NCBI GenBank assembly: GCA_900617105.1
Contig: UYFQ01000006.1
Location: 868,001-932,000, forward strand
Direction of reading: 5' to 3'
DNA from: Hydrurus foetidus
Lineage: Eukaryota
Length of the DNA: 64,000 nucleotides
Shown here: piece after piece, positions 369 to 60,932 of the stretch
Layout: each line of letters begins with the position of its first letter
Position numbering within the stretch: the stretch's first letter is position 1
Position numbers and translations under genes: made by a program
The notes under the pieces: model-generated
What the model saw: only the letters and a program-made list of their open reading frames with translations
What the model was told of the DNA's origin: nothing
Databases searched by the model: none

Positions 369-3300
369 ATGTTCCAGAAAATTCTGATCGCCAACCGGGG
401 TGAAATCGCCGTGCGTTTGGTGCGTGCCGTGGCCGACATGGGCATTCAAAGCGTGGCCGTCTACGCCCAGGACGACGCCCAAGCCCTGCATGTGCAAGCC
501 GCCGATACCGCCGTCGCTTTGGGCAACCCCGGTGAAGCCCGCGCCACAGGTGCTAGCGCCTACCTCAACATCTCCCGCCTGATCGCCATCGCCTTGGAAA
601 CCGGCTGTGATGCCATCCACCCCGGTTACGGTTTCCTGAGCGAGCGCGCTGATTTCGCCACGGCCTGCGCCGAGGCCGGTCTGTGCTTCATCGGCCCCAC
701 GCCCGAGCAGCTCGCCTTGTTCGGCGACAAAGCCAGCGCCCGTGCCTTGGCCTTGAAGCACCATGTCCCGCTGATGCCCGGCAGCCAAAGCGCTGTCACG
801 CTGGCGCAAGCGCAGGCCTTTTTTGCGGCGCAACAGCCGTCATCCGTGCAAACCTCTTCTGAGCCCGTCGGCATCATGGTCAAAGCCATTGGTGGCGGCG
901 GCGGACGCGGGATGCGTGCCGTGCTCAGCGCTGATGCCCTGCCCGAAGCCTATGCCCGTTGCGTCTCCGAAGCCCGCGCCGCTTTCGGGGTAGACGGCGT
1001 GTACGTCGAGCGCTTGATGGCCAACGCCCGCCACATCGAGATTCAAATTGTGGGCGATGGCGAATCCGTCATGTCCCTGGGCGAGCGTGAATGCAGCTTA
1101 CAGCGCCGTTTTCAAAAACTCGTCGAAATCGCCCCCAGCCCTTCGTTATCGTCTGCCTTGCGCGAGCAAGTCACCGCCGCCGCACTGAAGCTCGCCCGTG
1201 CCGTCCATTACCAAAGTCTGGGCACTTTCGAGTTTCTGGTAGACGTTGCCTCCACCGATTTGCCTTTCGTTTTCATCGAAGCCAACCCGCGTCTGCAAGT
1301 CGAGCACACCATCACCGAAGCCGTTACTGGGCTGGACTTGGTGCAGCTGCAAATCAGCGTGGCAGCCGGGCAAAGCCTGCAAACGCTGGGCCTCAACCCG
1401 GCGCAACCCCCACAGCCCCAAGGCTTTGCTCTCCAGTGGCGCATCAACGCCGAGACGTTGGATACCCAAGGCAACGCCCGCCCCACCAGCGGCACGCTGA
1501 CCCGCTTTGATTTGACCCAAGGCCCCGGCATCCGCGTCGATACCCACGGCTTTGGTGGCTGCACGCCTTCACCGCACTACGATACGCTGCTGGCCAAACT
1601 GATCGTCCACAGCCCCGGCACCTTCGCTGGGGCTGCCCGCCGCGCCCGCCGTGCCCTGGCCGAATGCCGCATTGAAGGCCTCGCCACCAATCTGCCCCTG
1701 CTGCAAGCCCTGGCGGCCAGACCTGAGTTCGACACGCAGCAGGTGCATACCCGGTTTGTGGAAGCGCATTTGGGTGAGCTGCTCGCCTCAGCCGTCGGGT
1801 TCAGCGTTGCTCCTGAAAAAGAAGCGGCTCTAGCACGCCCTGTAAGCGGTAAAGGCCTATTAGATGCCTCAAAATATGCTTTTGACCCCTCCCAAACCGC
1901 CGTTTTGGCCCCCATGCCCGCCCGCCTCGTGCAACTCAACGTGGCTGTGGGCGATGTGGTGCCTACAGGCCATCAGGTGGCGGTGCTGGAGGCCATGAAG
2001 ATGGAACACCTGCTGCTCGCGGATGCCCCAGGCCGTGTGTTGGAGATTCGCGCCGCTGTCGGCGATTACCTCAGCGAAGGCCAGCCTCTGGTCGTGCTGG
2101 AGCCGGTCGATGCCGACGCTATCGCCGCCACCACCGCTCACGCCATAGACCCCGACCACATCCGCCCCGATTTGCAGCGCGTGCGCGACCGCCACGCCTT
2201 CACGCTCGACATCAATCGCCCCGCAGCCGTTGCCAAACGCCACGCCCAGGGTGGCCGCACCGCCCGCGAAAACGTCGCTGACCTCTGCGATCTGGACGCT
2301 GCCACAGCGGTGGCTGAAGGCCGCAGCAACGCCATCGGTAGCTTCATCGAATACGGCGCACTCGCTATCGCCGCCCAAACCCGCCGACGCGGCCTTGCTG
2401 ACCTCATCGCCAACACGCCCGCCGACGGCATGGTGACGGGCATTGGCACGGTCAACGCCGCGCATTTCGGCCCCGAGGCCTCCCGCTGCGTCGTCATGGC
2501 CTACGACTACACCGTGCTGGCCGGTACGCAGGGCATGCGCAACCACCATAAAAAAGACCGCATGCTGGCCCTGGCCCACCAGCTCAAGCTGCCGGTGGTG
2601 CTGTTCGCTGAAGGCGGCGGTGGGCGGCCCGGTGACACCGACATGCCCATCGTGGCGGGCCTGAACAACCACACCTTCAGCCAGTTCGCCGCACTCTCCG
2701 GCAAAGTCCCCGTGGTCGGCATCGTGCATGGCCGCTGCTTCGCAGGCAACGCGGCGCTCTTGGGCTGCGCCGATGTCATCATCGCCACAAAAATGAGCAA
2801 CATCGGCATGAGCGGCCCCGCGATGATCGAAGGCGGCGGCTTGGGCCAGTTCAAACCCGAGCAAATCGGCCCCAGCGATGTGCAATCGCGCAACGGCGTG
2901 ATCGACGTGCTGGTCGCGGACGAAGCCGAGGCCGTCGCCGTCGCCAAGCGCTACATCGCGTACTTCCAGGGTGATTTGCCCACCTGGACATGCCCTGACC
3001 AGCGCCTGCTGCGCCAAGCCATCCCTGAAAACCGCTTGCGCGTCTACGACATTCGCCACGTCATGCAGGGTCTGGTGGACACCGATTCCCTGCTTGAATT
3101 GCGCGCGGGTTTTGGCCCTGGCATCCTCACTGCGCTTGCGCGTATTGAAGGACGTGCTATTGGAATCATAGCGAACAACCCCAAACACCTGGGCGGTGCC
3201 ATCGACGTGGATGCCGCCGACAAAGCCGCTCGCTTCATGCAGCTCTGCAACGCCCACGGCTTACCGATGGTGTCGCTGATGGACACACCCGGCTTCATGG

Positions 3301-3758
3301 TTGGCCCCGACATCGAAGCCCAAGCCCAAGTTCGCCACGTCTGCCGCCTGTTCGTGGTTGCCGCCCACCTGCAAGTGCCCTTTTTCAGCGTCGTCTTGCG
3401 CAAAGGCTACGGTCTGGGTGCCCAAGCGATGGCCGCAGGTGGCTTCGATGCGCCCGTGTTCAACGTCGCGTGGCCCACAGGTGAATTCGGCGCGATGGGC
3501 CTGGAAGGTGCCGTGCGCTTAGGCTTTCGCAAAGAGCTGGAAGCGGCAGAGGAAGGCCCGGAGCGTGATGCGCTGTTCAAAAAGCTGGTGGACGAGCAGT
3601 ACAGCAACGGCGAAGCCATGAACATGGCCGCCACGCTGGAGATCGACGCGGTAATCGACCCCGCCGCGACGAGGGATTGGCTGGTGAATGGGCTGGCTTC
3701 GGTGGGAAAGGTGGGCCAAGACCGGGCCGTGGGGGGGCGGTTTGTGGATACGTGGTGA
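369..3758 (+). CDS. Single-chain multidomain biotin-dependent acyl-CoA carboxylase (BC-BCCP-CT)
   Basis: KILIANRGEIA and HPGYGFLSE (biotin carboxylase), EAMKM biotinylation motif, C-terminal carboxyltransferase (GGGRPGD, DTPGFMVG). Confidence 0.92.
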   Translation: MFQKILIANRGEIAVRLVRAVADMGIQSVAVYAQDDAQALHVQAADTAVALGNPGEARATGASAYLNISRLIAIALETGCDAIHPGYGFLSERADFATACAEAGLCFIGPTPEQLALFGDKASARALALKHHVPLMPGSQSAVTLAQAQAFFAAQQPSSVQTSSEPVGIMVKAIGGGGGRGMRAVLSADALPEAYARCVSEARAAFGVDGVYVERLMANARHIEIQIVGDGESVMSLGERECSLQRRFQKLVEIAPSPSLSSALREQVTAAALKLARAVHYQSLGTFEFLVDVASTDLPFVFIEANPRLQVEHTITEAVTGLDLVQLQISVAAGQSLQTLGLNPAQPPQPQGFALQWRINAETLDTQGNARPTSGTLTRFDLTQGPGIRVDTHGFGGCTPSPHYDTLLAKLIVHSPGTFAGAARRARRALAECRIEGLATNLPLLQALAARPEFDTQQVHTRFVEAHLGELLASAVGFSVAPEKEAALARPVSGKGLLDASKYAFDPSQTAVLAPMPARLVQLNVAVGDVVPTGHQVAVLEAMKMEHLLLADAPGRVLEIRAAVGDYLSEGQPLVVLEPVDADAIAATTAHAIDPDHIRPDLQRVRDRHAFTLDINRPAAVAKRHAQGGRTARENVADLCDLDAATAVAEGRSNAIGSFIEYGALAIAAQTRRRGLADLIANTPADGMVTGIGTVNAAHFGPEASRCVVMAYDYTVLAGTQGMRNHHKKDRMLALAHQLKLPVVLFAEGGGGRPGDTDMPIVAGLNNHTFSQFAALSGKVPVVGIVHGRCFAGNAALLGCADVIIATKMSNIGMSGPAMIEGGGLGQFKPEQIGPSDVQSRNGVIDVLVADEAEAVAVAKRYIAYFQGDLPTWTCPDQRLLRQAIPENRLRVYDIRHVMQGLVDTDSLLELRAGFGPGILTALARIEGRAIGIIANNPKHLGGAIDVDAADKAARFMQLCNAHGLPMVSLMDTPGFMVGPDIEAQAQVRHVCRLFVVAAHLQVPFFSVVLRKGYGLGAQAMAAGGFDAPVFNVAWPTGEFGAMGLEGAVRLGFRKELEAAEEGPERDALFKKLVDEQYSNGEAMNMAATLEIDAVIDPAATRDWLVNGLASVGKVGQDRAVGGRFVDTW
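1809..1874 (+). repeat. Dispersed GCT-N11-AGC motif copy (carboxylase BC-BCCP linker)
   Basis: GCTCCTGAAAAAGAAGC-GGCTCTA-GC-ACGCCCT-GTAAGC-GGTAAAGGCCTA-TTA. Confidence 0.8.
3125..3172 (-). repeat. Dispersed motif copy (carboxylase CT domain)
   Basis: Core GCTATTGGAATCATAGC 3156-3172; minus-strand tail ACGTCCT-TC-AATACGC-GCAAGC. Confidence 0.8.
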
Positions 3759-3800
3759 CAGTTTTGGTTTTGGGTCTTGGTTTGGATTGTGGGCAGACGC

Positions 3801-3826
3801 AAAAAAGCCCGCGACGCAGGCGGGCT
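3801..3826 (-). terminator. Intrinsic terminator of the argS-SPOR-dsbA unit
   Basis: Minus strand AGCCCGC/GCGGGCT stem followed by a T-tract, just past the dsbA stop. Confidence 0.7.
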
Positions 3827-5342: not shown

Positions 5343-7027
5343 GGGGTTTCTTTCAGCATTTTTTGTGGCGCACTTACGCCAAGAACGGCCAAGCCGTTGT
5401 GCAACACCTGTGCCACCGCTGCGACCAAGGCCAGACGGGCCTGCCGCACGGGGATATCGTCTACCAAGATGCGCTCAGCGTCGTAATAGCTGTGGTAGCA
5501 AGCGGCCAGCTCGCGCAGGTAAAAGGTGACATCGTGCGGGGCGAAATCGTTGGCCGCCGCCGTCAGCATGGCGGGGTATTTGGCCAAAAGCAGCATCAAG
5601 GCCAGCGCCTGGGGGCTTTGCAGGGGTGACAAGTCGGTCGCTACCAAGCTGGCTTTGTCGCCACCCCACGCGGTCAATACCGAGCAAATGCGGGCGTGGG
5701 CGTACTGCACGTAGTACACCGGGTTGTCGTTGCTCTGGGCAATGGCCAAGTCCACGTCAAAGGTGTATTCGGTATCGGGCTTGCGGCTGAGCAGGAAGAA
5801 ACGCACGGCATCTTTGCTCGTCCACTCGATCAAATCGCGCAGCGTGACATAGCTGCCCGCGCGTTTGGAGATTTTGACCTCTTCGCCACCTTTGACTACG
5901 CGCACCATCGTGTGCAGCACGTAATCGGGGTAGCCCTGGGGAATGCCCACACCCGCAGCCTGCAAGCCAGCCCGCACCCGCGCAATCGTGCCATGGTGGT
6001 CGGTGCCCTGGATGTTGACGACCTTGTGAAAACCACGTTCCCATTTGGTGATGTGGTAGGCCACGTCGGGCACAAAGTAGGTGTAGGTGCCGTCGCCTTT
6101 GCGCATCACACGGTCTTTGTCGTCGCCATAGTCGGTGGATTTGAGCCACAGGGCGCCGTCTTGCTCGTAGGTTTTACCGGCGGCCACCAAACGCTGGACG
6201 GCGGCATCCACCTTGCCACTGGTGTACAGGCTGGACTCTAAATAGTAATGGTCGAACTTGACCTGAAAAGCCTTCAAATCCAAATCTTGCTCGTGGCGCA
6301 GGTAGGCGACGGCAAACTGGCGCATGCCGTCCAGATCGTTGATGTCCCCGCTGGCGGTGAATTCACGGTCATCGGCGTGAACCGTTTTTTTTGCTGCAAA
6401 ATCTATAGCTATATCAGCAATGTATTCACCGTTGTACGCTGATTCTGGCCATTCAGCATCACCTGGTTTGAAGCCCAGGGCACGGGCTTGGGTGCTGTTC
6501 GCCAGGGTTTGGATTTGCACGCCCGCATCGTTGTAATAAAACTCGCGGTGAACGCGCCAACCCTGGGTTTGGAACAGGCTGGCAATCGCGTCACCCAAGG
6601 CAGCTTGCCGCCCGTGGCCCACATGCAGCGGGCCGGTGGGATTGGCGGACACGTATTCGACCAGCATGGCTTTTTGGCGATCAGGTTGATAGCCGAACTG
6701 CAAGCCGCCTTGGAGCACTTCCACCACTATCTGCTGCTTGGCTTCGGGCTTCAAGGTGATATTGAGAAAGCCAGGGCCCGCGATGTCCACGGCTGCCACC
6801 CATTGCTGGAACACGGGTGTTAGCATCAGCCGGTCGCGCAAAGTTTCGCCCAATTGACGGGGGTTGAGCTTGAGCGGTTTGGCCAATTGCATGGCAGCGG
6901 TGCAGGCAAAGTCGCCGTGGGCGGCCACTTTGGGGGATTCAAAGGCGGCTTTGCTCGCAGCACCGGGCTGCAAGGCTTCGAGCTCAGCGGCAAGCGCCGT
7001 GAGTAAATCAGTTTTGACAGATAACAT
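5339..7027 (-). CDS. argS: Arginine--tRNA ligase
   Basis: [12 protein letters not shown] (HIGH), [14 protein letters not shown] motifs. Confidence 0.97.
6393..6420 (+). repeat. Dispersed motif copy (inside argS)
   Basis: GCTGCAAAATCTATAGC-TATATCA-GC; argS codons ATA GCT ATA GAT TTT GCA GCA. Confidence 0.7.
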
Positions 7028-13395: not shown

Positions 13396-14664
13396 TTATG
13401 CTGCCCCCACGCGCTGAAACAAGCCACCGGGCAAGCGAGCCAGATGACCGTCCAGCTCCAACGTCAACAGTTCTGCTTGCAACGCGGGCGTGGGCAGGCC
13501 GGTACGGGCTTGCAAGGCATCCAGGCCCACCGGGTCAAACCCGAGAGCTTGCAACAAGCTGCTTTCCGGGGCGATGGGTAACTCAATTGGGTTTTTATCG
13601 CTTACCTGGCGTGCTACAGGTGCTGCTTTTTTGATAGCAGTCTGAGGTTTCTCGGGTCGCCACTGCCCAAACTCTTCCAACACATCCTGGGCCGATTCGA
13701 CCAGCTTTGCACCCTGCTTGATAAGCGCATGGCAACCGCGGGACTGCGCTGCGTGGATCGAGCCGGGAATGGCAAACACATCTTTGCCTTGCTCGGAAGC
13801 CAGCCGCGCCGTGATGAGCGAGCCGGATTTGAGTGCGGCTTCCACCACTAGCGTCGCTTTAGAGAGGCCCGCGATGAGGCGGTTGCGGCGTGGAAAGTTC
13901 GCAGACATCGGCGGCGTGCCCAACGGGTATTCGCTGACCAGCAAGCCCTGAGATGCGATGCGGTGCGCCAGTTCAAAGTGCTGCTTGGGGTACACGCGGT
14001 CTAAGCCCGTGCCCACCACGGCCACGGTGGCTAAATGGGTGACAAGACCAGCGCCATCTGGTCCGTCTTTGCGTGCTGCCACAGCGGCGGCATCCAACGC
14101 GCCTGCATGGGCCGCGCCATCCACACCCAGGGCCAAGCCGGACACCACCGTCAGCCCCGCACCTACCAATGCTTTGGCAAACTGCCGCGCGTTTTCTTCC
14201 CCCTGTGGCGTTGGGTTGCGACTGCCCACCATCGCAATCGCGTTGCTCGCCTGGAACAAGGCCATGCCGCCAGCACTGTCGTCCTCCAAGTTAGCCCCCA
14301 CACCCATCACATACAGCAACAGCGGTGGGTCTTCCATGTTGAGCAGATCAATGGGGTAGGCGCTGTCGCCCAAGGTGACGATGCAGCGCGGCGCGGACGC
14401 TGGCTTTGAATCTGACGCTGTGGCACCGTCCAGCCACGCCTGCGTTTGCGCCCATTGCGCCTCGAAGTTTGGCGGCAACTGCCGCACCGCGTCAGCCACC
14501 TTGGCGCTGACCACCTGCTGTAATGCAGTGGCGCTGGCCTCAAAAACAGCCTCTGGCAGCCCAAAAGCGGCCAGCAGCTTGCGCGCGCCCTCGTTGCCCA
14601 AGCCGGGCGTTAAGGTCAGTCGCAGCCAAGCGGACAAGGCACGGGTGTCGCGGCTCACAGGCAT
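13396..14664 (-). CDS. dprA: DNA-processing protein DprA
   Basis: AMVGSRNPT, VVSGLALGVDGAAH, FPRRNRLIAGL, KSGSLITA motifs. Confidence 0.95.
   Translation of the reverse strand: MPVSRDTRALSAWLRLTLTPGLGNEGARKLLAAFGLPEAVFEASATALQQVVSAKVADAVRQLPPNFEAQWAQTQAWLDGATASDSKPASAPRCIVTLGDSAYPIDLLNMEDPPLLLYVMGVGANLEDDSAGGMALFQASNAIAMVGSRNPTPQGEENARQFAKALVGAGLTVVSGLALGVDGAAHAGALDAAAVAARKDGPDGAGLVTHLATVAVVGTGLDRVYPKQHFELAHRIASQGLLVSEYPLGTPPMSANFPRRNRLIAGLSKATLVVEAALKSGSLITARLASEQGKDVFAIPGSIHAAQSRGCHALIKQGAKLVESAQDVLEEFGQWRPEKPQTAIKKAAPVARQVSDKNPIELPIAPESSLLQALGFDPVGLDALQARTGLPTPALQAELLTLELDGHLARLPGGLFQRVGAA
13580..13638 (-). repeat. Dispersed motif copy (dprA linker)
   Basis: Minus strand GCTATCAAAAAAGCAGC-ACCTGTA-GC-ACGCCAG-GTAAGC-GATAAAAACCCA-ATT. 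Confidence 0.85.
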
Positions 14665-16600: not shown

Positions 16601-17610
16601 TGTGCAGCGCCCCCAAACCCTTTCGCGTCATTTTTGCCGGTACGCCTGAATTCGCCAGCGTCGCCTTGGCAGAATTGCTCGCCGCCGGGTTTGAAGTCCC
16701 TCTGGTGCTGACCCAGCCCGACCGCCCCGCCGGGCGCGGCATGAAGCTGCAAGCTTCCGCCGTGAAACTGTTGGCGCTGCAACACGGTATCCCCGTTGCC
16801 CAGCCCCGCAGCCTGCGCTTGGACGGCAAATACCCCGAAGACGCTGCTGCCGCGCAAGCTGCTATCAAAAACGCAGCTGCTGACGCTGCTGTGGTCGCGG
16901 CTTATGGCCTCATTCTTCCTGAATGGGTGCTGCAATCCCCGCCACTAGGTTGCTTCAACATCCACGCCAGCCTGTTGCCCCGTTGGCGGGGTGCCGCGCC
17001 CATCCACCGGGCCATCGAAGCCGGGGACGCACACACCGGCATCACCCTGATGCAAATGGACGCGGGCCTGGACACCGGCGACATGCTGCTGACCGAGCGC
17101 CTCGCCATCGCCACCACCGACACCACCGCCACGCTGCACGACAAGCTCGCCGCGATGGGGGGCCGCATGGCGGTCAACGCGCTGAGGCTCGCCACCGCCG
17201 GGGCACTGCAACCCGTTAAGCAGCCCGAAACAGGTATCACCTACGCGCACAAAATCGACAAAGCCGAAGCGCTGATCGACTGGTCGCAACCCGCCGAGGT
17301 GATTGAGCGCCGCATCCGCGCCTTCAATCCCTTCCCCGGTGCCAGTACCGTGCTGGGTGCAGATACGCTCAAAATCTGGAGCGCAGAAATAATCCAAAAT
17401 GATAGCGGTATACGCCCATCAGATAAGCTGAATGGGGCTATTTTGCAAGTTAACCCTGACAGCATCACCGTCCACACCGGCTCTGCGCCCCTGCGCTTGA
17501 CGGCGTTGCAACGTGCAGGTGGCAAGCGCTTGCCCGTGGCTGACTTTCTGCGTGGATTTCCGCTGGAAGTCGGCATGGTGATGGGTTCTGCCACAAAGTC
17601 TGATGAATAG
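16600..17610 (+). CDS. fmt: Methionyl-tRNA formyltransferase
   Basis: [34 protein letters not shown] motifs. Confidence 0.97.
16861..16890 (+). repeat. Dispersed motif copy (fmt, copy 1)
   Basis: GCTATCAAAAACGCAGC-TGCTGAC-GC. Confidence 0.75.
17390..17446 (+). repeat. Dispersed motif copy (fmt, copy 2; left half-core degenerate)
   Basis: TAATCCAAAATGATAGC-GGTATAC-GC-CCATCAG-ATAAGC-TGAATGGGGCTA-TTT. Confidence 0.75.
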
Positions 17611-17708: not shown

Positions 17709-18902
17709 ATGAACTTCATCCGCTTCTCTGACCTCTGCGCCCAAGGCCGTGCCCAAAACCAACGTGTCTTCATCCGTGCCGATCTGAACGTACCCCAAGA
17801 TGACGCGGGCCACATCACAGAAGACACCCGCATCCGCGCCTCGGTGCCCTGCATCCAAATGGCGCTGGACGCTGGCGCAGCGGTGATGGTCACGTCGCAC
17901 CTGGGTCGCCCCACCGAGGGTGAATTCAAACCTGCTGACTCCTTGGCCCCCGTCGCCAAACGCCTGGGTGAACTCTTAGGCCGTGACGTGCCGCTGGTCA
18001 GCAACTGGGTGGACGGGGTCACTGTGGCCCCCGGCCAGGTCGTGCTGCTGGAAAACTGCCGCGTCAACAAGGGCGAGAAAAAGAACAACGAAGACCTCGC
18101 CAAAAAGCTCGCCGCCCTGTGCGACATCTTCGTCCACGACGCTTTCGGCACTGCCCACCGTGCAGAAGCCACCACCTATGGCATCGCCCAGTTCGCGCCC
18201 ATCGCCAGCGCAGGCCCCCTCTTGGCCGCTGAAATGGATGCCATCAGCAAAGCCCTGGCCGCTCCCAAGCACCCCCTGATCGCCATCGTGGCGGGCAGCA
18301 AAGTCAGCACCAAATTGACGATTTTGGAAGCGCTGTCGGGCAAAGTAGACGGTTTGATCGTGGGCGGCGGCATCGCCAACACCTTCATGCTGGCCGCTGG
18401 CCTCAACATCGGCAAGAGCTTGGCTGAGCCTGATTTGGTGGACAAAGCCCGCACCGTGATCGCCGACATGAAGGCCCGTGGTGCGGATGTGCCGATCCCC
18501 ACCGACGTGGTGTGCGCCAAAAGCTTCAGCGCCGATGCCGTGGCCACCGTCAAAGCCGCTACCGACGTGGCCGACGATGATTTGATCCTGGACATTGGCC
18601 CAGAGACCGCCGCCCGACTGGCCGTCCAGCTCAAAGCCGCTGGCACCATCGTCTGGAACGGCCCCGTTGGCGTGTTCGAATTCGACGCCTTCGCCCACGG
18701 CACCGAAGCAATAGCCCGCGCCATCGCCGACAGTGCTGCGTTTTCGATAGCAGGCGGTGGCGACACCCTGGCCGCTATCGCTAAATACGGCATTGAGGAA
18801 CAAGTCGGTTACATCTCCACCGGCGGCGGTGCTTTCTTGGAAGTGCTGGAAGGCAAGACCCTGCCTGCGTTTGAGATTTTGCAGAAGCGGGCGAATGGGT
18901 AA
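17709..18902 (+). CDS. pgk: Phosphoglycerate kinase
   Basis: [35 protein letters not shown] motifs. Confidence 0.97.
18710..18751 (-). repeat. Dispersed motif copy (inside pgk)
   Basis: Core GCTGCGTTTTCGATAGC 18735-18751 overlapping the conserved FSIAGGGDT; minus tail ACTGTCG-GC. Confidence 0.7.
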
Positions 18903-22608: not shown

Positions 22609-23502
22609 ATGAACGCTCTCCACACCTCATCCCTCGCCTCTCTCCCCCTGCTTGCCCGTGGCAAAGTACGTGACAACTACGCTGTGGGCGATGACCGCAT
22701 CCTCATGGTGGCCAGCGACCGCATCAGTGCGTTCGATGTCATCATGGGTGAGCCCATCCCCGGCAAAGGCACGCTGCTGACGCAAATGGCGCTGTTTTGG
22801 TTTGACAAGCTGGGGCACATTTGCCCGAACCACCTGACCGGCGATGCGCCGGAAAGTGCTGTGCGTGCCGATGAGGTGGCGCAAGTTACAGGCCGCTCCA
22901 TGTTGGTCAAGCGCTTGAAGCCGCTGCCTGTTGAGGCGGTGGTGCGGGGCTATTTGGCTGGCAGTGGCTGGAAGGAATACCAAGAATCCCAAACCGTTTG
23001 CGGCGTCCCTCTGCCACCAGGCCTGAAAAACGCCAGCAAGCTGCCAGAACCCATCTTCACACCTGCCGCCAAAGCCGCTGTGGGTGAGCACGACGAAAAC
23101 ATCAGCTACGCGCAAGTCGAGCAAACCATTGGTGCTGATTTGGCCCGCCAAATGCGCGAAGTCAGCATCCAGCTTTACGTGGCTGCTAGCCAAATTGCAG
23201 CCGCCAAGGGCATCATCATTGCCGATACCAAGTTTGAATTTGGTTTGGATGATGCAGGCAACATGGTGCTGATGGACGAGGTATTGACACCCGACTCGTC
23301 GCGCTTCTGGCCCGAAGAGTCTTACGCGCAAAGTTTGGCCGAGGGCAGCAATCCTCCCAGCTATGACAAACAGTTTTTACGCGACTGGTTGGAAACACAA
23401 GCTGCGTGGGACAAAACACCGCCTGCACCGCGGCTACCTCAAGCCGTCATCGCGCATACTGCGCAGAAATACCGTGATGCATTGACGCGATTAACCCATT
23501 AA
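22609..23502 (+). CDS. purC: SAICAR synthetase
   Basis: [35 protein letters not shown] motifs. Confidence 0.96.
23185..23201. repeat. Possible core-only copy of the dispersed motif (purC)
   Basis: GCTAGCCAAATTGCAGC; no recognisable tail. Confidence 0.4.
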
Positions 23503-25504: not shown

Positions 25505-25972
25505 GTGTTCCTTCACAAAAAAATAAGCTCAAACCCAGTGGTTAAGCTTTCTGCATCAGCATCTGAAGCTATTAAAAAAGTAGCGGCCTCAACCCCGCCC
25601 ACAACCAAGCAGCAAGGCGATGCAGCCGAAGACGCGGCACTGCGCCACTTGCAAGCCGCTGGCCTGCGGCTGGTACAGCGCAATTATCGAACGCCAGGGC
25701 GCGGTGGCGGTGAGATTGACCTGATTGTGCGTGCGCCCGACGGCACGCTGGTGTTTGTGGAAGTCAAGCGCCGTGCTACCACCCGCTTTGGCGGTGCCGC
25801 CGCCAGCGTCAGCGCGGTGAAGCAGCGGCGCATTGTGTTTGCTGCCCGGCACTTTTTGATGCGCCTGCCCACACCACCACCCTGCCGGTTTGATGTGGTG
25901 ATTTGGGAAGGTGGGGAGGTCGGTGGCCGTATCGAATGGCTGCAGGCCGCGTTCGATGCATCCTCGTTTTGA
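25505..25972 (+). CDS. yraN: YraN-family (UPF0102) putative nuclease
   Basis: G..AE..A...L, GEIDLI, LVFVEVK, CRFDVV; start uncertain. Confidence 0.9.
   Translation: MFLHKKISSNPVVKLSASASEAIKKVAASTPPTTKQQGDAAEDAALRHLQAAGLRLVQRNYRTPGRGGGEIDLIVRAPDGTLVFVEVKRRATTRFGGAAASVSAVKQRRIVFAARHFLMRLPTPPPCRFDVVIWEGGEVGGRIEWLQAAFDASSF
25525..25584 (-). repeat. Dispersed motif copy (yraN N-terminus, near the rsmI start)
   Basis: Minus strand GCTACTTTTTTAATAGC-TTCAGAT-GC-TGATGCA-GAAAGC-TTAACCACTGGG-TTT. Confidence 0.85.
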
Positions 25973-32682: not shown

Positions 32683-35600
32683 ATGCCAGACCGCCTACCC
32701 GCCCCCTACCGCCCTGAAGCCCAAGTTCTTGCTGAGCGCCTGCGTGTATTGCACGGCGGTGCGCTCGACTGGGCCAGCGCGGCCCGCAGTGCCCGCCCCT
32801 GGGTGCAGGCCGTGCGCGAAAACCCGCCGCCGTTTTGGGCGATGGAAAGCCTGCTCAAGGAATACCCTATCTCCAGCGCCGAAGGCTTGGCGCTGATGCG
32901 GCTGGCCGAGGCTTTGCTGCGCGTGCCCGACGCACAAACCGCCATCGCCCTCACCGCCGACCAACTGGGTCGGGCGGACTTTGAAGGCGGCAGCGACGGG
33001 ATGCTGGCGAATTTGTCATCGGCGGCGATTGCGATGTCCAAGCGGTTTTTGCCCCACGAAGGTGGCCATCAACCCCATTTGCTGACCAAACTGGGCGCAA
33101 AAACCGTGGTGGCGGCGACGGTACGGGCCGTACAGCTGCTGGGCAAACAGTTTGTACTGGGTCAGACGATTACCGAAGCCATGAACGAGGCTGTCAGCGC
33201 TCGCAAACACACCACTCATCTGACTTTCAGCTACGACATGCTGGGCGAAGGCGCACGCACCGAGGCCGATGCGCAGCGCTACCTGGCCAGCTACACCAGT
33301 GCTATACAAAACATAGCTACCCGTGCAGATAAAACCTGCGAAGTTGAACGTAATGACGGTATTTCTATCAAGCTGAGCGCCCTGCACCCCCGCTACGAAC
33401 ACACCCAGCACGCCCGCGTGATGACCGAGCTGGTGCCGCGCGTGTGGGGGCTGTGCGAACTGGCGGCCAAGGCCAGCATCAACCTGACGATTGACGCGGA
33501 AGAGGTCGATCGCCTGGAACTTTCGCTCGATGTGTTCGAGGCCTTGCTCGCTCAGGTAGCACAGCATTACCCCCAGTGGGGCGGCTTTGGTTTAGCCCTT
33601 CAGGCCTACCAAACCCGGGCGCTGGAGCTGATTGAACATGTCACCACGCTGGCCCGCCAATACCAAGTTCGCCTGATGTGCCGCCTCGTCAAAGGCGCGT
33701 ACTGGGACGCTGAAATCAAACGCACCCAAGAGCTGGGCTTGCCGGCCTACCCGGTGTTCACGCACAAGCACCACACCGATGTGTCTTATCTCGCCTGCGC
33801 CCAAGCCCTGCTGGCCGCGCCAGACACGATTTACCCGCAGTTTGCAACGCACAACGCGGCCACCATCGCGGCGATTTTGCAGATGGCGGCGAAATCCAAC
33901 ACGTCCAGTTTCGAGCTGCAACGTCTGCACGGCATGGGCGAAGGTGTCTATCGGGAAGTGCTAAAGAACCCGCTCATCGCCTGCCGTGTCTATGCCCCCG
34001 TCGGCGCGCACAAAGACCTGCTGGCTTACTTGGTGCGGCGTTTGCTGGAAAACGGCGCGAACTCGTCCTTCGTTCACCAGCTTGCCGATGAATCGGTGCG
34101 CATGGAAGAGTTGCTGATTTCGCCTTTACGGCTGGAACCCGTCAGTGCCGTGACCCTGCCCGCTGACCTGTTTGGCCCCTCGCGCAGCAACAGCGCGGGC
34201 CTGGATTTGGCGGTGCATGAGATGCTGGCCCCGCTCTTGGCGGCCTACACCACCACAGCGGTGCCTGCGGTGACTGAATTTGATGTCAAAACCACAGCTA
34301 CAGCAGTAGATAAAAGCTATACCAGCTATCAAAATTGGAGCAAAAAACCCGTTTCTGAGCGTGCCACCACCCTGCGCCAGGCCGCCGATGCGCTGCAAAC
34401 GCAAATGCCCCGCTTTTGCGCCTTGCTGGTCAAAGAAGCCTTCAAAACCTGGGGCGATGCTGTAGGCGAGGTGCGCGAGGCAGTGGACTTTTTGCGCTAC
34501 TACGCCGCTGAAGCCGTGCGCCTGATGCAGCCGATGATGATGCCCGCGCAAGGGGCTGGCGACAACTTGGGCATCACAGGCGAAAGCAACACCCTGCGCC
34601 TCACCGCTCGCGGCCCCTGGGTGTGCATCAGCCCGTGGAATTTCCCACTGGCAATCTTCATGGGCCAAGTCGCCGCCGCGCTGGCCACGGGCAATACCGT
34701 GCTGGCCAAACCAGCGGAACAAACCCCTGGCATCGCGCTGGAAGCTGTGCGCCTGCTGCACGCGGTGGGTGTGCCTGTGGACGCTTTGCAGCTCTGCCAC
34801 GGCCCCGGCGAGACCGTGGGCGCAGCACTGGTGGCCCACCCTGGCATTGCGGGCGTGGTGTTCACCGGCTCTACAGCTGTCGCCAAAATCATCAACCGGG
34901 CGCTGGCCGCGAAGGACGGCCCCATCACGCCGCTGATTGCGGAGACAGGCGGCATCAACGCGATGCTGGTGGATTCGACCGCGCTGCCCGAGCAGGTGGC
35001 CGATGCCGTGGTGCAAAGCGCCTTTCGCAGCGCAGGGCAGCGGTGCTCGGCGCTGCGGCTGCTGTGCGTCCACGAGGCCATTGCCGACAGCGTGATCGCC
35101 ATGGTGCAGGGGGCAGCTCAGGCACTGGTGGTAGGCGACCCCGCTGACTTGGCGACGGATGTAGGGCCGGTGATTGATGCGGAGGCCTTTGCATGCATCC
35201 AGCAGCATGTTGTACGGTTAAAAACAGCCTCAAAACCTCTCTTTTCGCCCTCTTTATCAACAGATAATGCTATGAATTTGATACTCCCTCACGCATTTGA
35301 GGTAGCGCAGATCAGCGACATGAAACACGAGATTTTTGGCCCCGTGCTGCACATCGTTCGCTGGGGCAGCGGTGCTTTGAGCGACCCAGCGGCAGTGATC
35401 GCCCAGATCAACCAGCTCGGCTACGGCTTGACGTTGGGCATTCAGACCCGCATCGACAGCCGCGCCCAGGCGCTGGCCGCGTTGGCGCACACGGGCAATG
35501 TGTACATCAACCGCAACATCATCGGCGCAGTGGTGGGCTTGCAGCCGTTTGGCGGCGAGGGTTTGAGCGGCACCGGGCCTAAAGCCGGTGGGCCGCATTA

Positions 35601-36439: not shown

Positions 36440-37408
36440 CTAATTCAACACCATGCTCAAGCGACGGCGGTAGGTCGATACCAGCGCGGCTTGCGGGTCT
36501 TCTTTCACTGCGGCTTTGCCTGCCAACTCGATGCCACCCGCTGTTTTTCCCGATGCATCGGCGGCCACCTTGGGTTTGGGTGGCGTCAGCAGCTCCAAAA
36601 TCGCCACGTAGGTTTTGCGCGGTGCCTGGGCGTTCCAGGTTTTGTCGCGCATGATGATTTCAAGCAACTCGTCCATGGACTCCAGCATCGCGCCTTGGGC
36701 CATCAGCACCTGGCTTTTGGCGAAGCGGGTGTCAAAGTCGCGCTTGTTTTTGGCGATTTCGGCATCAAACTCAGCAACAGACCAATTGGCGCGGGTGTCA
36801 GTAGCTACAAATTCCATAGCTTTCAACCACTGCACCAGCGCCTCAAAGCGCAGTTGCACGGGGATCTGCACCAGCGCGGGGGCCAGCGCACTGTGGGCTT
36901 CGGGCAGGTAGCCCAAGCTGATGAGCAGTTTGGCGTAGTCAAAGCGGGCATCGTCATTGGCGGGGTTGTCGGCCAACGTCTCTTGCAGCTTGACCAAGGC
37001 CAGCTCCGGGTCAGCGGCATCCGCGTCGGCGCGGGCTTGGGCTTCGGCGCTCAGCGCTTCGTCTTCGGGGGCCAAAGCCTCTGCTGAGGGCACATGCTTT
37101 TCCAAAAAGGTGCGGACTTGACCTTCGGGCAAAGCACCGGTGAAGCCGTCTACCGGCTTGCCCTCGATGACCAAGATGCAGGTGGGGATGCTACGCACAC
37201 CGAACGCAGCGGCGAGCTGCTGTTCGTTGTCCGAGTCAATTTTGACGAGGTTGAAGCGGCCCTCAAAGTCGGCTTCCAGCTTTTCCAGCACGGGGCCCAG
37301 GGATTTGCAGGGGCCGCACCAGGGTGCCCAAAAGTCCACCAAAACGGGGGTGGTCATGGAAGCCGCGATCACATCGGCCTCAAAGTTTTGCAGGGTTACG
37401 TCAATCAT
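36440..37408 (-). CDS. ybbN: Thioredoxin-TPR chaperedoxin (YbbN/CnoX)
   Basis: DFWAPWCGPC plus C-terminal TPR region ending YRRRLS. Confidence 0.9.
   Translation of the reverse strand: MIDVTLQNFEADVIAASMTTPVLVDFWAPWCGPCKSLGPVLEKLEADFEGRFNLVKIDSDNEQQLAAAFGVRSIPTCILVIEGKPVDGFTGALPEGQVRTFLEKHVPSAEALAPEDEALSAEAQARADADAADPELALVKLQETLADNPANDDARFDYAKLLISLGYLPEAHSALAPALVQIPVQLRFEALVQWLKAMEFVATDTRANWSVAEFDAEIAKNKRDFDTRFAKSQVLMAQGAMLESMDELLEIIMRDKTWNAQAPRKTYVAILELLTPPKPKVAADASGKTAGGIELAGKAAVKEDPQAALVSTYRRRLSMVLN
36757..36820 (-). repeat. Dispersed motif copy (ybbN)
   Basis: Minus strand GCTATGGAATTTGTAGC-TACTGAC-AC-CCGCGCC-AATTGG-TCTGTTGCTGAG-TTT. Confidence 0.78.
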
Positions 37409-38020: not shown

Positions 38021-39411
38021 ACACCACCCCAGACTCCTGCGCTGCTGAGGCCTTGCTGCCCGGTGCCCTGCCGCTGCTGCACTCCACCCCCATCCCCCAC
38101 GTGGGCGACCACCGCGTCAGCCTCGACGACGCTGGCGAGCTGTCCCTGCGCACCGCGACGGCACGCCCCCGAGAAAGCCGCCCCAGCACGATGGGGGGCG
38201 AGCACCAAATGACTTTGGGCGTGATGGGCGGCGGCCAGTTAGGCCGCATGTTCGTCCACGCAGCGCAGCAAATGGGCTATTTCACCGCCGTGCTCGACCC
38301 TGATGCCGCCAGCCCCGCCGGGCATGTCAGCCACATACACGTTCAAACCGATTACCGGGATGCCGCAGGTTTGGCGCAAATGGCTGCCCAGTGCGATGCC
38401 ATCACCACCGAGTTTGAAAACGTACCGGCCCCCGCGCTGCACACCCTGAGCGCGTCGCGCCCCGTGGCACCCGGTGCCAACGCCGTCGCCATCGCCCAAG
38501 ACCGCGCCCAAGAAAAAGCCCACTTTGGCCGCTGCGGTGTGCCCTGTGCGCCTTACGTGTTGATCGAAACCGTGGCCCAACTCAAGGCCGTGGACGCCGC
38601 GATGTTCCCTGGCATCCTCAAAACGACCCGCATGGGCTATGACGGCAAAGGCCAAGCCTCTGTGCCTGATGTTGCCGCGCTGCTGCTGGCCTGGGAACAC
38701 CTGGACTACGTGCCCTGCGTGCTGGAGAAAAAACTGCCGCTGGCCTCTGAGTGCTCCGTCATTCTGGCGCGGGGGCGCGATGGGCAGATGGTGAACTTCC
38801 CCGTGCAGCTGAACCTGCACCGCGAAGGCATCTTGGCCGTGACCCAGGTTTACACAGGAAATATCTCCGCAGCGCTTGCTGAACAAGCGGTAGCAGCTGC
38901 GAAATCCATAGCGGAAGGCTTGCAGTACGTCGGCGTGCTGTGCGTGGAGTTTTTCGTGTTGAAAGACGGCTCACCCGACGCTGCTGCCCTCGGTGGCTTG
39001 ATTGTCAATGAGATTGCCCCGCGCCCGCACAACAGCGGCCACTACAGCATGGACGCTTGCGACAGCTCGCAGTTTGACCTGCAAGTGCGCACCCTGGCCG
39101 GTTTGCCGTTGACGCAGCCGCGCCAACACAGCCCCGTCATCATGCTCAACCTGCTGGGCGACCTGTGGGCCAAAGGCACGCCCGCATGGGACACGGTGCT
39201 CGCGCTGCCCGGCACCCATTTGCACCTGTACGGCAAGCTTAACCCCAGTGTCGGGCGCAAGATGGGCCACCTGAACATCACCGGTGCCACCATCGAGGCC
39301 GTGCAGGCCACCGCGCTGCAAGCCGCACAGCTACTGGGCATTGCACCTTGGGCACTGGGCGGCGGCGATCTGACGCACGCGGCACCCGCGACACCAGCAG
39401 TATCCGCATGA
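38017..39411 (+). CDS. purK: N5-CAIR synthetase
   Basis: [31 protein letters not shown]...GRKMGH; N-terminal insertion. Confidence 0.95.
38849..38912 (-). repeat. Dispersed motif copy (purK)
   Basis: Minus strand GCTATGGATTTCGCAGC-TGCTACC-GC-TTGTTCA-GCAAGC-GCTGCGGAGATA-TTT. Confidence 0.85.
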
Positions 39412-40424
39412 TCCTCGACGGCAACGCCCCCAGCGCCATCACCACGGCAGCCCTTGCCTTGCAACGCGGCGAGCTGCTGGGCTTGCCCACAGAAACCGTC
39501 TACGGCCTCGCCGCTGATGCGGGGCAGGCACAGGCTGTCGCCAACATCTTCAGCGCCAAGGGCCGCCCTAGCGACCACCCGCTGATCGTCCACGTCGCCG
39601 ATGTGGCCGATGCTGCGCACTTCGCCGCCCACCTGCCCAGCTTCGCGCACCGATTGATGCAAGCCTTTTGGCCCGGCCCGCTGACCTTGATCGTGCCCCG
39701 TGCCCCTGGCATCGCCGCAGCCGCTGCGGGCGGGCAAGACTCCATCGGCCTGCGTTGCCCTTCGCACCCAGTAGCACAGGCGCTGCTGCGGGCTTGCCGC
39801 GATCTCGGGGTGATGGGCTTGGCGGCACCCAGTGCCAACCAGTTTGGCCGCGTCAGCCCCACCACCGCCGCCCATGTGCAGGCCGAATTTGGCGACAGTT
39901 TGCTGATTTTGGACGGTGGCGCGTGCAGCGTAGGCATCGAATCCACCATCATCGACTGCACCCGAGGCGTGCCCCTGCTGCTGCGCCCTGGTGGCATCAC
40001 CCGCGAACAGATCAAGGCGACGTGCGGATTGAATGTGCCACCGATGCTCTCGAATCAAGAGCAGTCAACACATACAGAACAAGCACCCAAAGCCTCTGGC
40101 ACGCTGGAAGCCCATTACGCGCCCAAAGCTCCGGTGCGTCTGATGAGCGCCAAAGCGCTGCAAACCGCCATCGACATCCTCGGCCCTGACGCTGCGAACA
40201 TCGCGGTGTGGGCGCGTTGCCCGCTGCAAGTCCGCGCCGCTCACCTGCTGGTGCGCCGCATGCCCGACGACGCGCAAGCCACCGCCCAGCAGCTGTTCGC
40301 CATGTTGCGCGGCTTTGACGACCAAGGCTGCAAGCTGATCTGGATAGAGACCCCCCCCGACGACGTGGCCTGGGAAGGCGTGCGCGACCGCTTGCAGCGG
40401 GCTACAGCCGCTACAACCCCGTAG
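39408..40424 (+). CDS. tsaC: L-threonylcarbamoyladenylate synthase (Sua5-type)
   Basis: PTETVYGL, KGRP.DHPLIVH, APSAN, C-terminal SUA5 domain (HYAP). Confidence 0.94.
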   Translation: MILDGNAPSAITTAALALQRGELLGLPTETVYGLAADAGQAQAVANIFSAKGRPSDHPLIVHVADVADAAHFAAHLPSFAHRLMQAFWPGPLTLIVPRAPGIAAAAAGGQDSIGLRCPSHPVAQALLRACRDLGVMGLAAPSANQFGRVSPTTAAHVQAEFGDSLLILDGGACSVGIESTIIDCTRGVPLLLRPGGITREQIKATCGLNVPPMLSNQEQSTHTEQAPKASGTLEAHYAPKAPVRLMSAKALQTAIDILGPDAANIAVWARCPLQVRAAHLLVRRMPDDAQATAQQLFAMLRGFDDQGCKLIWIETPPDDVAWEGVRDRLQRATAATTP

Positions 40425-44998: not shown

Positions 44999-46036
44999 TC
45001 AATCCACCTTCGCGCCTGAGGCTTTGACGACTTGGGCCCATTTCTTGTGCTCATCCACGATGAAGCTCGCAAACTCTTGCGGCGTGTTGCCGCTGGGCAG
45101 CGCCCCCTGGGCCAACAGTTTTTCTTTGATGGCGGGGGTGTTGAGCGATTTGGCTACTTCTTGCTGAATGCGGCTCACGGTGTCGGCGGGTGTGCCTGAC
45201 GGGGCCAGCAGGCCAAACCATGAGCTGGCATCGTAGCCTTTGAGGGCGGGGCCACCGGCTTGCGCGATGGTGGGCACGTCGGGCATGGCCGCTGAGCGCT
45301 GGGCGCTGGTCACGGCCAGGGCTTTGAGTTTGCCGCCTTTGATTTGAGGCATCGAGGACGGCAAGTTGTCGAACATCACATCCACATTTCCACCCACCAT
45401 GTCGAGCAGCGCCGGGCCGGAGCCTCGGTAGGGGATGTGCGTCATGAAGGTGCCGGTCATGGTTTTGAACAGCTCACCGGCGAGGTGGATCGACGTGCCG
45501 TTGCCGCTGGACGCCATGCTGAGCTTGCCGGGGTTGGCGCGAGCGTACTGGATGAAATCCGCCACGGTGTTGATGCCTCGCGCCCGCGCCGCCTCGGTGT
45601 TCACCACCATCACATTGGGCACAGCGGCCACGAGGGTGATGGGCGCGAAGTCTTTGAGCGAGTCAAACGGCATCTTGTCGTACAGCGCCCGGTTGATACC
45701 GTGCGTGCCCACGGTGCCCATCAGCAGCGTGTAGCCGTCTGCGGGCGATTTGGCCACCACGTCAGCGCCCAGATTGCCGCCCGCACCGGGCCGGTTTTCG
45801 ACGATGAACTGCTGGTTAAACGCTTTAGACAACTCCGGTGCCATCGCGCGGGCCAAGATGTCGGTGGTGCCGCCTGCGGCGAAGGGCACGACGATCTTGA
45901 CTGGCTTGGTAGGCCAGGAGGCTTCCGCCAGCACAGGACTTGCTATGAAAAATGTAGCTGTTAAAGCAGATGCAGTAAGCAGGGTGCGCCAGTTTAATGG
46001 TGTTTTTTCAGGTGTGGAATGAACAGACAAGGGCAT
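44999..46036 (-). CDS. Tripartite tricarboxylate transporter substrate-binding protein (Bug/TctC)
   Basis: [29 protein letters not shown]. Confidence 0.93.
45942..46000 (+). repeat. Dispersed motif copy (Bug signal-peptide region)
   Basis: GCTATGAAAAATGTAGC-TGTTAAA-GC-AGATGCA-GTAAGC-AGGGTGCGCCAG-TTT. Confidence 0.87.
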
Positions 46037-48546: not shown

Positions 48547-49803
48547 TCAAGCGTAGCTGCGGGCATCCTCAATCACTTTGCCATCGTTGGGCAGGCTGCC
48601 GGTGGGCACGATCAGCACGTCGCCACGCAGTTTGGTGATATCGCGCACGGCTTGTCCTAGTGACTCGGCCAGCGTGCCCATGTCGGCCAGCGCCTCGGGG
48701 CTGACTTCTACTTTCAGCGTCATCTGGTCGTTCGCCATTTCGCCGCTGACCACCAAGCGCGAGCGCAGCACCTGGGGGAAGCGCCGGGCAATGTCAGCCA
48801 CTTGGCTGGGGTGGACGAACATGCCACGGATTTTGGTGGTTTGGTCGGCGCGGCCTAGCCAGCCTCGGATGCGGGTGTTGGTGCGGCCCGTGGGGCAAGG
48901 GCCGGGCAGCACGGCAGACAGATCGCCGGTGCCAAAGCGGATCAGCGGGTAGCCTTGGTTGAAGGTGGTGATGACGACTTCGCCCACTTCGCCATCGGGC
49001 AAGGCCTCACCCGTGCCGGGGCGGACGATTTCCAACAATCACGCCTTCGTCAAGCACCAGGCCTTCGCGGGCTTCAGTCTCATACGCGATCAGCCCCAAA
49101 TCAGCGGTGGCGTAGCACTGGTAAATGCACGCCGCGCGCAAGTACCAGTCGCGCAAGGCTGGGCGGAAAAGCTTCGCCGCCAACCAGCGCTTTGGTCATG
49201 CTGGGATGTCACGCCCATTGCTTCCGCTTTTTCGACCATGATTCCGCAGAAAGCTGGGCGTGCCGATGTAACCATCGGGCGAAGCTCGGCAATGGCTTCC
49301 ACCTGCTGCTCGGTCTGGCCCGTGCCGCCTGGGAACACGGTGCAGCCTAGCGCGTGGGCACCGCTTTCCATCATCGCGCCAGCGGGCACAAAGTGGTAGC
49401 TGAAGCAGTTGTGGATCAGCTCACCGGGGCGAAAGCCTGCGGCAAACATGGAACGCGCCATGCGCCAATGGTCTGGCCCCACGCCATCGGGCTCGTACAA
49501 GGTGCCGGGGCTGGCGAAGACGCGGGGCATTTTTGCTCCGAATTTGGTAGCACTGAAACCACCAAACACATCCTCTGAGCGGTGCTTCTGCTGTAATTCG
49601 AGCAGCTCGTGTTTGCGCGTGACGGGCAATTGGGCCAGCGCGGCGCGGCTGGTGATGCTGGGCGCTGCCACCCCTTGCAGGATGCGGGCAAAAGCCGGTG
49701 CATGGGCCTGCGCATGGGCGATTTGGCCGGGCAAGGCGGCGAGCAACGCGGCCTCACGCAGGGCAGGGTCACGGGATTCCAGGGCGTCAAAAAAATCGCT
49801 CAT
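48547..49803 (-). pseudogene. Phenylacetate-CoA ligase-like (PaaK family) gene, frameshifted as given
   Basis: ORFs 49090-49803 and 48547-49038 are halves of one protein (HNCFSYH..., YPLIRFGTGD); 49040-49280 garbled, probably sequencing error. Confidence 0.7.
49535..49560 (+). repeat. Dispersed motif copy (PaaK-like gene)
   Basis: Core GCTCCGAATTTGGTAGC; tail weak. Confidence 0.6.
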
Positions 49804-52015: not shown

Positions 52016-52082
52016 AGTTGTCTCCAAAAAGTTAAGAAAAACAGAACACCAGAAAAACCGACACAAAAACGATCTTAAAAAT

Positions 52083-53159: not shown

Positions 53160-53168
53160 TTTTCGCTC

Positions 53169-54099: not shown

Positions 54100-54107
54100 G
54101 ATTTTCC

Positions 54108-60715: not shown

Positions 60716-60847
60716 AGTGCTCCACTTGGTTATTGCTCGCAGACTTTAACCCAGACACGTTACCCTGGGAATTAGGGATGGCGAGCATGGCTTGTGATCT
60801 ATTGCCACAAAATGCCCTTCAACAGCGATCCGTTTGACGACATGCGT

Positions 60848-60873
60848 AAAAAAGGGCACCGCAGTGCCCTTTT
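60848..60873 (-). terminator. Intrinsic terminator after the phasin gene
   Basis: AAAAAAGGGCAC-CGCA-GTGCCCTTTT. Confidence 0.8.
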
Positions 60874-60932
60874 AGCCAAAATATGGCGAACTTGCTTTAT
60901 CAGGCAGCAGGTGTAGCTGCAACTTCGATAGC
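60870..60932 (-). repeat. Dispersed motif copy (spans the phasin stop codon)
   Basis: Minus strand GCTATCGAAGTTGCAGC-TACACCT-GC-TGCCTGA-TAAAGC-AAGTTCGCCATA-TTT. Confidence 0.82.

Follow-up and report, generated by a model that had tools for sequence, protein, structure and literature searches.

A stretch of 64,000 nucleotides deposited under the name Hydrurus foetidus (GenBank assembly GCA_900617105.1, contig UYFQ01000006.1, positions 868,001 to 932,000 of the forward strand; hereafter the window, numbered from its first letter) carries a gap-free DNA motif of 55 bases, a palindromic core with a tail on one side, that is written into protein-coding genes. We confirmed that this motif, first noticed in the letters of the window alone, is real. 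It is a family-wide and family-restricted signal of the Comamonadaceae, which overlies codons in such a way that silent positions are kept only in motif-rich genomes. Comparison of related loci indicates that its copies likely arose and were maintained one site at a time by point changes, and that they are likely read by a putative protein. The most likely purpose, to which we give a probability of roughly 40%, would be to favour motif-bearing DNA in uptake or recombination, as do the DNA uptake sequences (DUS) of Neisseriaceae and the uptake signal sequences (USS) of Pasteurellaceae. The genes of the window are ordinary betaproteobacterial housekeeping genes, and the relatives of its PurK, at up to 75% identity, belong to the Comamonadaceae. 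No close relative of the window was present in genome and metagenome collections, where the best matches reached 75% (PurK) and 72% (TsaC).

Sites were scored with a matrix of 47 bits trained on 193 non-orthologous sites, all outside the window to guard against circularity, and counts in the window were compared with 300 per-gene codon shuffles that preserve each protein and its codon use. The sequence-only reading had listed 19 copies of a core, GCTRY-N7-RYAGC, with GC, AAGC and TTT at fixed offsets on one side; the sequence given for each copy was present at all 19 positions, 11 of these sites indeed hold the strict core, and AAGC and TTT stand at their exact offsets in 8/19 and 9/19 copies, as claimed. 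Across the whole window there are 16 strict cores, the additional five mostly having a GC-rich centre, against 1.9 expected from the shuffles (maximum 7), and the 13 strict cores with an A/T-rich centre compare with 0.61 after shuffling (maximum 3). Cores alone scoring at least 14 bits number 16 (0.95 expected), and with the full matrix 11 window sites reach at least 16 bits against 0.17 in the shuffles (maximum 2 in 300). Selection by the 17-bp core alone, which leaves the tail unbiased, recovered 19 sites, 16 of them on the original list, and the tail persisted: AAGC in 8/19 (0.24 expected), TTT in 8/19 (0.73) and GC in 14/19 (4.1), with AAGC found only 0-1 times at offsets shifted by 1-4 bases, so that the tail marks are confined to exact offsets. 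The tail also emerged when 80 related loci were seeded on cores alone. Most of the listed sites hold, but the list missed a copy at 40046 in tsaC and includes a doubtful one at 23185, which has a core of 9 bits and no tail. Three further entries are present in altered form: 28073 is a damaged copy, intact at the same place in three of four motif-rich relatives, 17390 has a damaged left half-core with a full tail, and 49535 is a core only.

For genome-wide placement we used a Rhodoferax-like complete genome (G001), a relative of the window, of which 800 of 3749 kb were covered in three stretches, two picked as seemingly site-poor, with gene boundaries from a simple in-house gene model. With one mismatch allowed, as in the counts of motif load below, the pattern gives 6 matches in the 64-kb window, a density similar to that of G001. 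Beyond the window the tail is richer, comprising an imperfect second dyad, GCGC-N11-GCGC, and then AGAGGC-N2-WTTT. In G001 the element extends from about -3 to +62 and consists of dyad 1 (GCTMY-N7-RKAGC with an A/T centre), T-G-C-T, dyad 2 (GCGC-N11-GCGC), AGAGGC and an A/T tract at 50-53, the centre of dyad 2 lying 23 bp past that of dyad 1. T2 and A14, a T-N11-A within the dyad, are invariant in 107/107 sites of one genome, across which the information is split between core (19 bits) and tail (30 bits), and no core-less tail above 18 bits was found in 600 kb. The spacer had been described as free; the fixed geometry stands, but the spacer carries genus-specific preferences. Because the closest pair of sites in 400 kb of G001 is 359 bp apart, inverted pairs are absent there. 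Separately, six sites in G001 1-400000 (L081-L100) lie at gene ends at the same offset, where CTA at motif positions 40-42 provides a TAG stop on the opposite strand, and rare cores are tailed on both sides (G286:C12:481004-481066, G328:C1:10286-10348 and G333:C1:39047-39109).

Of 251 genomes in the family, 44 hold the exact 40-base pattern at least 10 times, the reversed pattern giving 0-2 matches, and a shorter pattern run against 301 genomes of the order reached at least 10 only in the seed genome and in two genomes that were also in the family sample. Our orthologue set consisted of 80 related purK loci, and motif load was counted, one mismatch allowed, in the genomes of 50 named ones. These Comamonadaceae-group genomes comprise 17 rich (163-457 matches), 5 middle (43-111) and 28 poor (0-14) members, and core-only counts divide the genomes in the same way, with 15-57 cores left in some poor ones. 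Since rich loci reach 66-69% GC and poor ones 53-55%, GC content is not the cause of this split. A four-gene tree of 49 counted genomes and the window, from which the Hymenobacter row and 30 loci without a count were excluded, has at least four well-supported placements of poor genomes among rich or middle ones (Acidovorax Root219; Polaromonas LjRoot131; Comamonas koreensis with C. sediminis; most Hylemonella), and on this phylogeny the motif was lost at least four times. Some deep nodes lack support, as does the placement of the window near Limnohabitans/Hylemonella. Motif-rich and motif-poor genomes also occur as sister species, respectively Leaf78 and Root219 in Acidovorax, OV174 and LjRoot131 in Polaromonas, and C. 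odontotermitis and C. koreensis in Comamonas, which means that a gene-content profile could name the reader.

The clearest evidence that the signal overlies codons comes from the purK site (38859..38912, minus strand, antisense), which at 44 bits is the best copy in the window, ancestral, and strong in 17/17 rich genomes. No insertion or deletion was found at this site in 80/80 orthologues, and its mean score is 43.5 in the 17 rich genomes, 23.8 in the 5 middle ones and -31 in the 28 poor ones, 26/28 of the latter scoring below zero; near-identical peptides score 50 or -10 through silent codons alone. Comamonas NTP6 and a Hymenobacter copy, apparently transferred, are the exceptions among poor genomes. 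Comamonadaceae-like purK genes occur in three Hymenobacter records (L054, from Hymenobacter frigidus, L069 and L075), and that of L054 keeps a 22-bit site though its genome has only 2 matches, which suggests transfer from a motif-rich donor. In neighbouring gene families 0/8 coding sites coincide with a motif-sized insert of 19 residues, and position and length of six sites are unchanged in relatives of 88-92% identity wherever these are covered. Inside window cores, isoleucine is encoded by ATA in 8/15 cases (3% elsewhere) and alanine by GCT in 13/19 (15% elsewhere). Genus dialects are common to coding and non-coding copies: in three groups, coding sites match the non-coding dialect of their own group best in 61/68, 25/39 and 13/30 cases.

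We compared 11 window sites with up to four rich genomes and one poor genome. Two proved common to rich relatives. The ancestral yggS copy (31059..31112, plus strand, sense, frame 0) scores 38 bits and has counterparts of 26-58 bits in 3/3 rich relatives and -18 in a poor one, with no indel; the copy in an NAD(P)-dependent dehydrogenase gene at 27298-28263 (28036..28089, minus strand) is a damaged ancestral one of -6 bits, its counterparts scoring 25-34 bits in 3/4 rich relatives and -22 in a poor one. Sites in the carboxylase gene at 366-3758 (two), argS, dprA, fmt (two), pgk and purC are missing from rich relatives. In the carboxylase gene, the linker copy at 1809..1862 (plus strand, sense, frame 0; 34 bits) is absent from the two rich relatives tested (-61 and -73), where linker length differs by +3 and -7 residues, and the young-looking copy at 3119..3172 (minus strand, antisense), listed at 3156, consists of a core of 16-19 bits with AAGC, scores -1 in full and aligns without gaps to two rich relatives that lack the site. 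Another young-looking copy, in argS (6393..6446, plus strand, antisense; core 19 bits, full 9 bits), is not found in four rich relatives and one poor one, and its core was built with amino-acid changes (DIAIDFAAK in the window against DIAQDFLAK in a relative). The copy at 16861..16914 in fmt (plus strand, sense, frame 0; 22 bits) faces one rich and one poor relative without site or indel, and the second fmt copy, at 17390..17443 (plus strand), has 2 bits overall, its left half-core damaged and its GC/AAGC/TTT tail complete. The pgk core (18698..18751, minus strand with orientation uncertain; 15 bits) uses the rare isoleucine codon ATA, and five relatives lack the site without an indel; the doubtful purC copy (23185..23238, plus strand) has a core of 9 bits and scores -15 in full. 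The sites in pgk, purC, fmt (16861) and the carboxylase gene (3156) are cores with weak tails in alignments without indels, as expected if the core arises first, and the window-only sites in argS, pgk, fmt and the carboxylase gene look newly built, core first. The dprA copy (13585..13638, minus strand, sense; 24 bits) lies in a variable linker, which differs by -15 to +10 residues in three rich relatives without the site. Between secF and dprA stands a gene of 757 residues (11015-13288), present in all five relatives searched, whose sole match is a weak one to the PacR family.

Among the remaining copies, three are in putA: 33301..33354 (plus strand, sense; 22 bits), 34288..34341 (minus strand, antisense; 29 bits) and a weak one at 35232..35285 (minus strand; core 11-14 bits, TTT present, full 1.5 bits). 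The copy at 25531..25584 (minus strand; 18 bits, core 23 bits, three tail marks) lies over the 5' end of yraN and is coding if an early start is used. A shared copy in a thioredoxin-family gene at 36440-37408 (36767..36820, minus strand, sense, frame 0; 21 bits) is conserved in 9/17 rich and 0/24 poor genomes, and the overlooked tsaC copy (40046..40099, plus strand, sense, frame 2; 18 bits) has a counterpart at roughly the same place in 6/17 rich genomes. An antisense copy at 45942..45995 (plus strand; 25 bits, three tail marks) lies in the 5' portion of the gene at 44999-46036, and a copy with three tail marks covers the 3' end of the phasin gene including its stop codon (60879..60932, minus strand; core 13 bits, full 6 bits). 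A tail-less core, listed without strand at 49535..49551 (core 23 bits, full 4.5 bits), lies in a frameshifted paaK-like gene. This gene belongs to a transporter and ligase cluster at 48547-56847 in which the paaK-like, livG-like, livH-like and long-chain acyl-CoA ligase genes are each split across frames, through decay or assembly error. At 41470-41510, between convergent genes, a strong hairpin accompanied by runs of A and T is likely a two-way terminator and gives a weak match to the core matrix. Nearly all window sites are coding, and none of five clear convergent gaps in the window holds a site.

In the first 400 kb of G001 we found 65 sites, one per 6.2 kb, of which 24 are coding, and their spacing is more even than chance (coefficient of variation 0.74; P 0.006, or 0.016 with a gene-aware null). 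Over the 800 kb, sites occupy 19/40 convergent, 47/280 tandem and 2/85 divergent gaps, and two reading frames take 28/37 coding sites. Strands are balanced in the three stretches (33/31, 14/12 and 11/6), and among the matches listed, positions run from 8 kb to 3.3 Mb of the 3.75-Mb chromosome. Chi and KOPS are polar chromosome motifs, and matS and the SlmA or Noc sites mark chromosome domains; the motif shows neither strand polarity nor restriction to one chromosome region. It is absent from recently acquired DNA, as seen in one island, a 90-kb stretch of atypical composition in G001 with 0 sites, and in two conjugative plasmids, those of R. ferrireducens and P. naphthalenivorans (257 and 353 kb), also with 0 sites. 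A non-mobilizable 373-kb Comamonas plasmid has 21 sites and two other plasmids have 3 each, all three having been chosen because each had a match. Two long G001 reading frames, of 4777 and 2759 residues (G001:C1:724156-738489 and 2365825-2374104), are site-free. A match was found in 67 viral stretches, five of whose contigs hold 1-6 sites in 22-81 kb, and several phage contigs have 2-3 sites within 1 kb; these sites adjoin unrelated genes rather than marking a single functional place. Three cultured phages gave 0, 0 and 1 weak match, their hosts being of unestablished motif load. In viral contigs L186, L204/L209, L231 and L240, a facing pair of sites is separated by 162 bp, and two of these cases have a third site close by; the region has no PHROG match. 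We considered miniature inverted-repeat transposable elements (MITEs) as the source of these inverted pairs in five phage loci and dropped the idea, since the shared flanks indicate a single homologous low-complexity phage region.

A copied element would account for two hairpin-like dyads, for a GTAG, GGAG or ATAG word before the second dyad, for the bias to gene 3' ends and for two clear score classes. This explanation, whether as a repetitive extragenic palindromic (REP) sequence, a MITE, a palindromic element of Rickettsia type or copies homogenised by gene conversion, acting as RNA or single-strand hairpin, is highly improbable and already largely refuted. Conserved genes show no indel at the site; copy-to-copy identity among 107 sites is at most 81%, independent draws from the matrix giving 77%; covariation in the same sites is strongest between adjacent bases rather than stem partners, and the would-be partners 3-13, 4-12 and 26-36 pair in 59%, 42% and 14%. 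A given target duplication is seen in at most 2 of 64 sites, and Rfam gave no match in the window at gathering score; a 60-kb portion of a rich genome gave five at chance level, to families not named for the motif. A blastn search with one copy returned three plasmid matches, none annotated, and one chance phage match. Genes for Y1 transposases, which include the REP-associated tyrosine transposases (RAYTs), occur in 45/49 genomes, rich and poor alike, and no site lies within 1.5 kb of 12 such loci, six of them from rich genomes. The absence of indels, the limited identity and the conservation at DNA level bear out the sequence-only view of a gap-free multipart site in genes rather than a decaying transposon. 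Nearly every Comamonadaceae-group genome (L106-L112 among them) has one Y1-transposase-like gene of about 235-260 residues, possibly domesticated, with no motif nearby. Operators of one LysR-type regulator, as a global regulator or nucleoid protein recognising a T-N11-A box and a second box, had also been proposed and seem the least probable source. The invariant T at 2 and A at 14 agree with the proposal, and a 55-bp span with two boxes two turns apart resembles LysR footprints; however, sites are nearly missing from divergent gaps (2/85), and of about seven LysR candidates, shared by two rich genomes and lacking in a poor one, the four tested each turn up in motif-poor genomes, the other three being pairs of lower identity. 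LysR thus fared worst of the three candidates originally put forward.

A cytoplasmic chromosome factor, such as a nucleoid organiser, topoisomerase recruiter or segregation or repair helper, with one site per few kb fixed by selection rather than uptake, is a more substantial contender that we nevertheless regard as doubtful. The spacing of about 21-23 bp between the two dyads and A/T tracts would suit a protein that bends or wraps DNA, and even spacing, the preference for convergent gaps (19/40), the sites on temperate phages and a resident plasmid, and competence genes that do not track the motif all agree with it. However, in a genome with about 600 sites any one silent site should be of little consequence, and yet individual sites persist across genera; pgk and argS tolerate rare codons and amino-acid changes; and the system was dropped at least four times. 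Nor do the three stretches show strand polarity, or any large regional gap outside atypical DNA, and no binder was identified among the genes tested. A self-mark or start site for another form of DNA transfer or defence (packaging into transducing particles, mobilisation as at an origin of transfer, protection from a nuclease), driven locally as uptake would be, is unlikely: the motif is directional, multipart, evenly spaced and missing from recent DNA, and the clusters of 2-3 sites per kb in several phage contigs and the near-empty cultured phages would fit, but no such gene is linked to it, small GIY-YIG (Ssn-like) genes being sporadic in rich and poor genomes, and phage sites stand beside unrelated genes.

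We favour uptake or recombination, where a double-strand reader with a graded preference would give a chance core a small advantage, the tail following later; loss of the reader would let all sites decay, and a changed reader would retune them. The advantage may lie at the stage of DNA uptake or recombination and not inside the chromosome. Several observations weigh against this proposal. Temperate phage contigs have a site density near that of the host, which sits less easily with an uptake drive; the coding hosts of one genome, 35 in all, have general housekeeping roles and show no competence enrichment; few sites of intermediate score exist in G001; window-only sites could instead be old sites lost elsewhere, and in variable linkers (-15 to +10 residues) insertion is possible. 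The element is also far larger (47-50 bits, 55 bp) than the 9-10-base cores of DUS and USS, and Verminephrobacter eiseniae, alone in the family in having evidence of selective uptake, shows no piece of the motif and one unrelated pair in the available part of a 2017 survey (PMC5217627). Competence genes give no help: a ComP-like pilin is found in 47/49 genomes and ComEC in 48/49, neither tracking the motif, and short ComEA is present in 10/10 rich and 7/10 poor genomes with no evident sequence difference. In 10 rich and 7-10 poor genomes, minor-pilin clusters contain no rich-only gene and differ among the rich, and the comEC and comEA neighbourhoods contain no rich-only competence gene. The nearby dprA and pilTU, once cited in favour of uptake, are no evidence for it, because competence genes also occur in motif-poor relatives. 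The comEC gene itself carries a site in 10/10 rich and 0/10 poor genomes, a link to competence that we dropped on finding the tex and uvrC loci nearly equal (9/10 rich each). Profiling motif abundance against gene families, as the sequence-only reading had suggested, named no binder among the families tested. A broader proposal, which falls a little short of an even chance, is genome-wide addressing, in which a large lineage-tuned complex would read a 55-bp, 50-bit site, rewriting hundreds of genes, codons of essential enzymes among them, and colonising resident plasmids and prophages, either as a third, far more selective uptake code or as a chromosome-organising or self-marking machine.

Sequence-specific uptake codes have been described for Neisseriaceae and Pasteurellaceae; if the motif is a third and much longer code, in a family common in fresh water and soil, it would test both the origin of such signals and whether they are a selfish drive or of use. 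A cytoplasmic reader would be a chromosome factor not described before, with about 600 sites. In either case the motif is a marker of DNA that has long been resident, it skews the choice of codons and amino acids, and it could help to deliver genes into Comamonadaceae, and the window adds a lineage with nearly all sites coding and several apparently newly born. Natural transformation is reported in Acidovorax and selective uptake in V. eiseniae, and the available text names no signal there (PMC4212676). The sequence-only reading knew no name or cognate protein for the motif. The whole element and exact motif strings were indeed not found in a literature search, subscription journals lying outside its scope, and the accessible part of PMC2755013 has nothing on it, but fragments have already been published, with no function assigned. 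Tong, Schliekelman and Mrazek (2017) list unexplained spaced pairs including GCTTAT-N5-AAGCG in Acidovorax ebreus, ATAGCT-N22-CAAAAG in Polaromonas naphthalenivorans and 140 pairs in Rhodoferax ferrireducens, as well as pairs in Variovorax paradoxus (PMC5217627). Their spacings fit the fixed positions of the motif (24-39, 12-45, 0-15 and 10-43) and they share its convergent-gap bias (44 against 4 divergent); they differ in being separate five-base pairs, not one element, described in the parts available to us without overprinting, loss pattern or function (PMC5217627).

Among repeats, GTAG-family REPs and bacterial interspersed mosaic elements (BIMEs) with RAYTs resemble the motif in having hundreds of palindromic copies, mostly downstream of genes, and a GTAG-like word, whereas intragenic REPs add amino acids and the motif adds none in conserved genes, no RAYT gene among 12 loci is flanked by it, and there are neither near-identical copies nor stem covariation; the main text of that paper does not name Comamonadaceae (PMC3733652). 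Palindromic elements of Rickettsia also lie inside protein-coding genes, but as insertions, whereas the motif replaces codons one for one (PMC3733652). The betaproteobacterial repeat element (BRE) occurs in Polaromonas, Rhodoferax and Acidovorax genomes too, and is set apart by its description as 75-91 bp long, 69% GC, often tandem and in at most 29 copies (PMC3110155). The NTS/SRM hairpin repeats with Ssn nucleases are likewise dispersed and tied to transformation, but SRMs are hairpins flanking a small GIY-YIG gene, and such genes do not track the motif (PMC11893778). The closest likeness in evolution is to DUS and USS, whose published habits we used for comparison (PMC2817400, PMC2397512, PMC3630211): hundreds of copies on both strands, many in genes in preferred frames and at permissive positions, a core-genome location rather than recent DNA, lineage dialects, and substitutions in genes that change the peptide. 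The motif differs from their 9-10-base cores in its 55 bp, about 47-50 bits and two inner dyads, and also in its patchy occurrence with repeated loss and its lack of inverted pairs. A dedicated receptor in the uptake machinery (ComP in Neisseria) belongs to these systems; ComP-like proteins, ComEC and ComEA are found in motif-rich and motif-poor genomes alike. We describe the motif as DUS/USS-like in its evolution but do not count it as a member, since biased uptake defines DUS and USS, the motif is known from sequence alone, and its core is not a short one.

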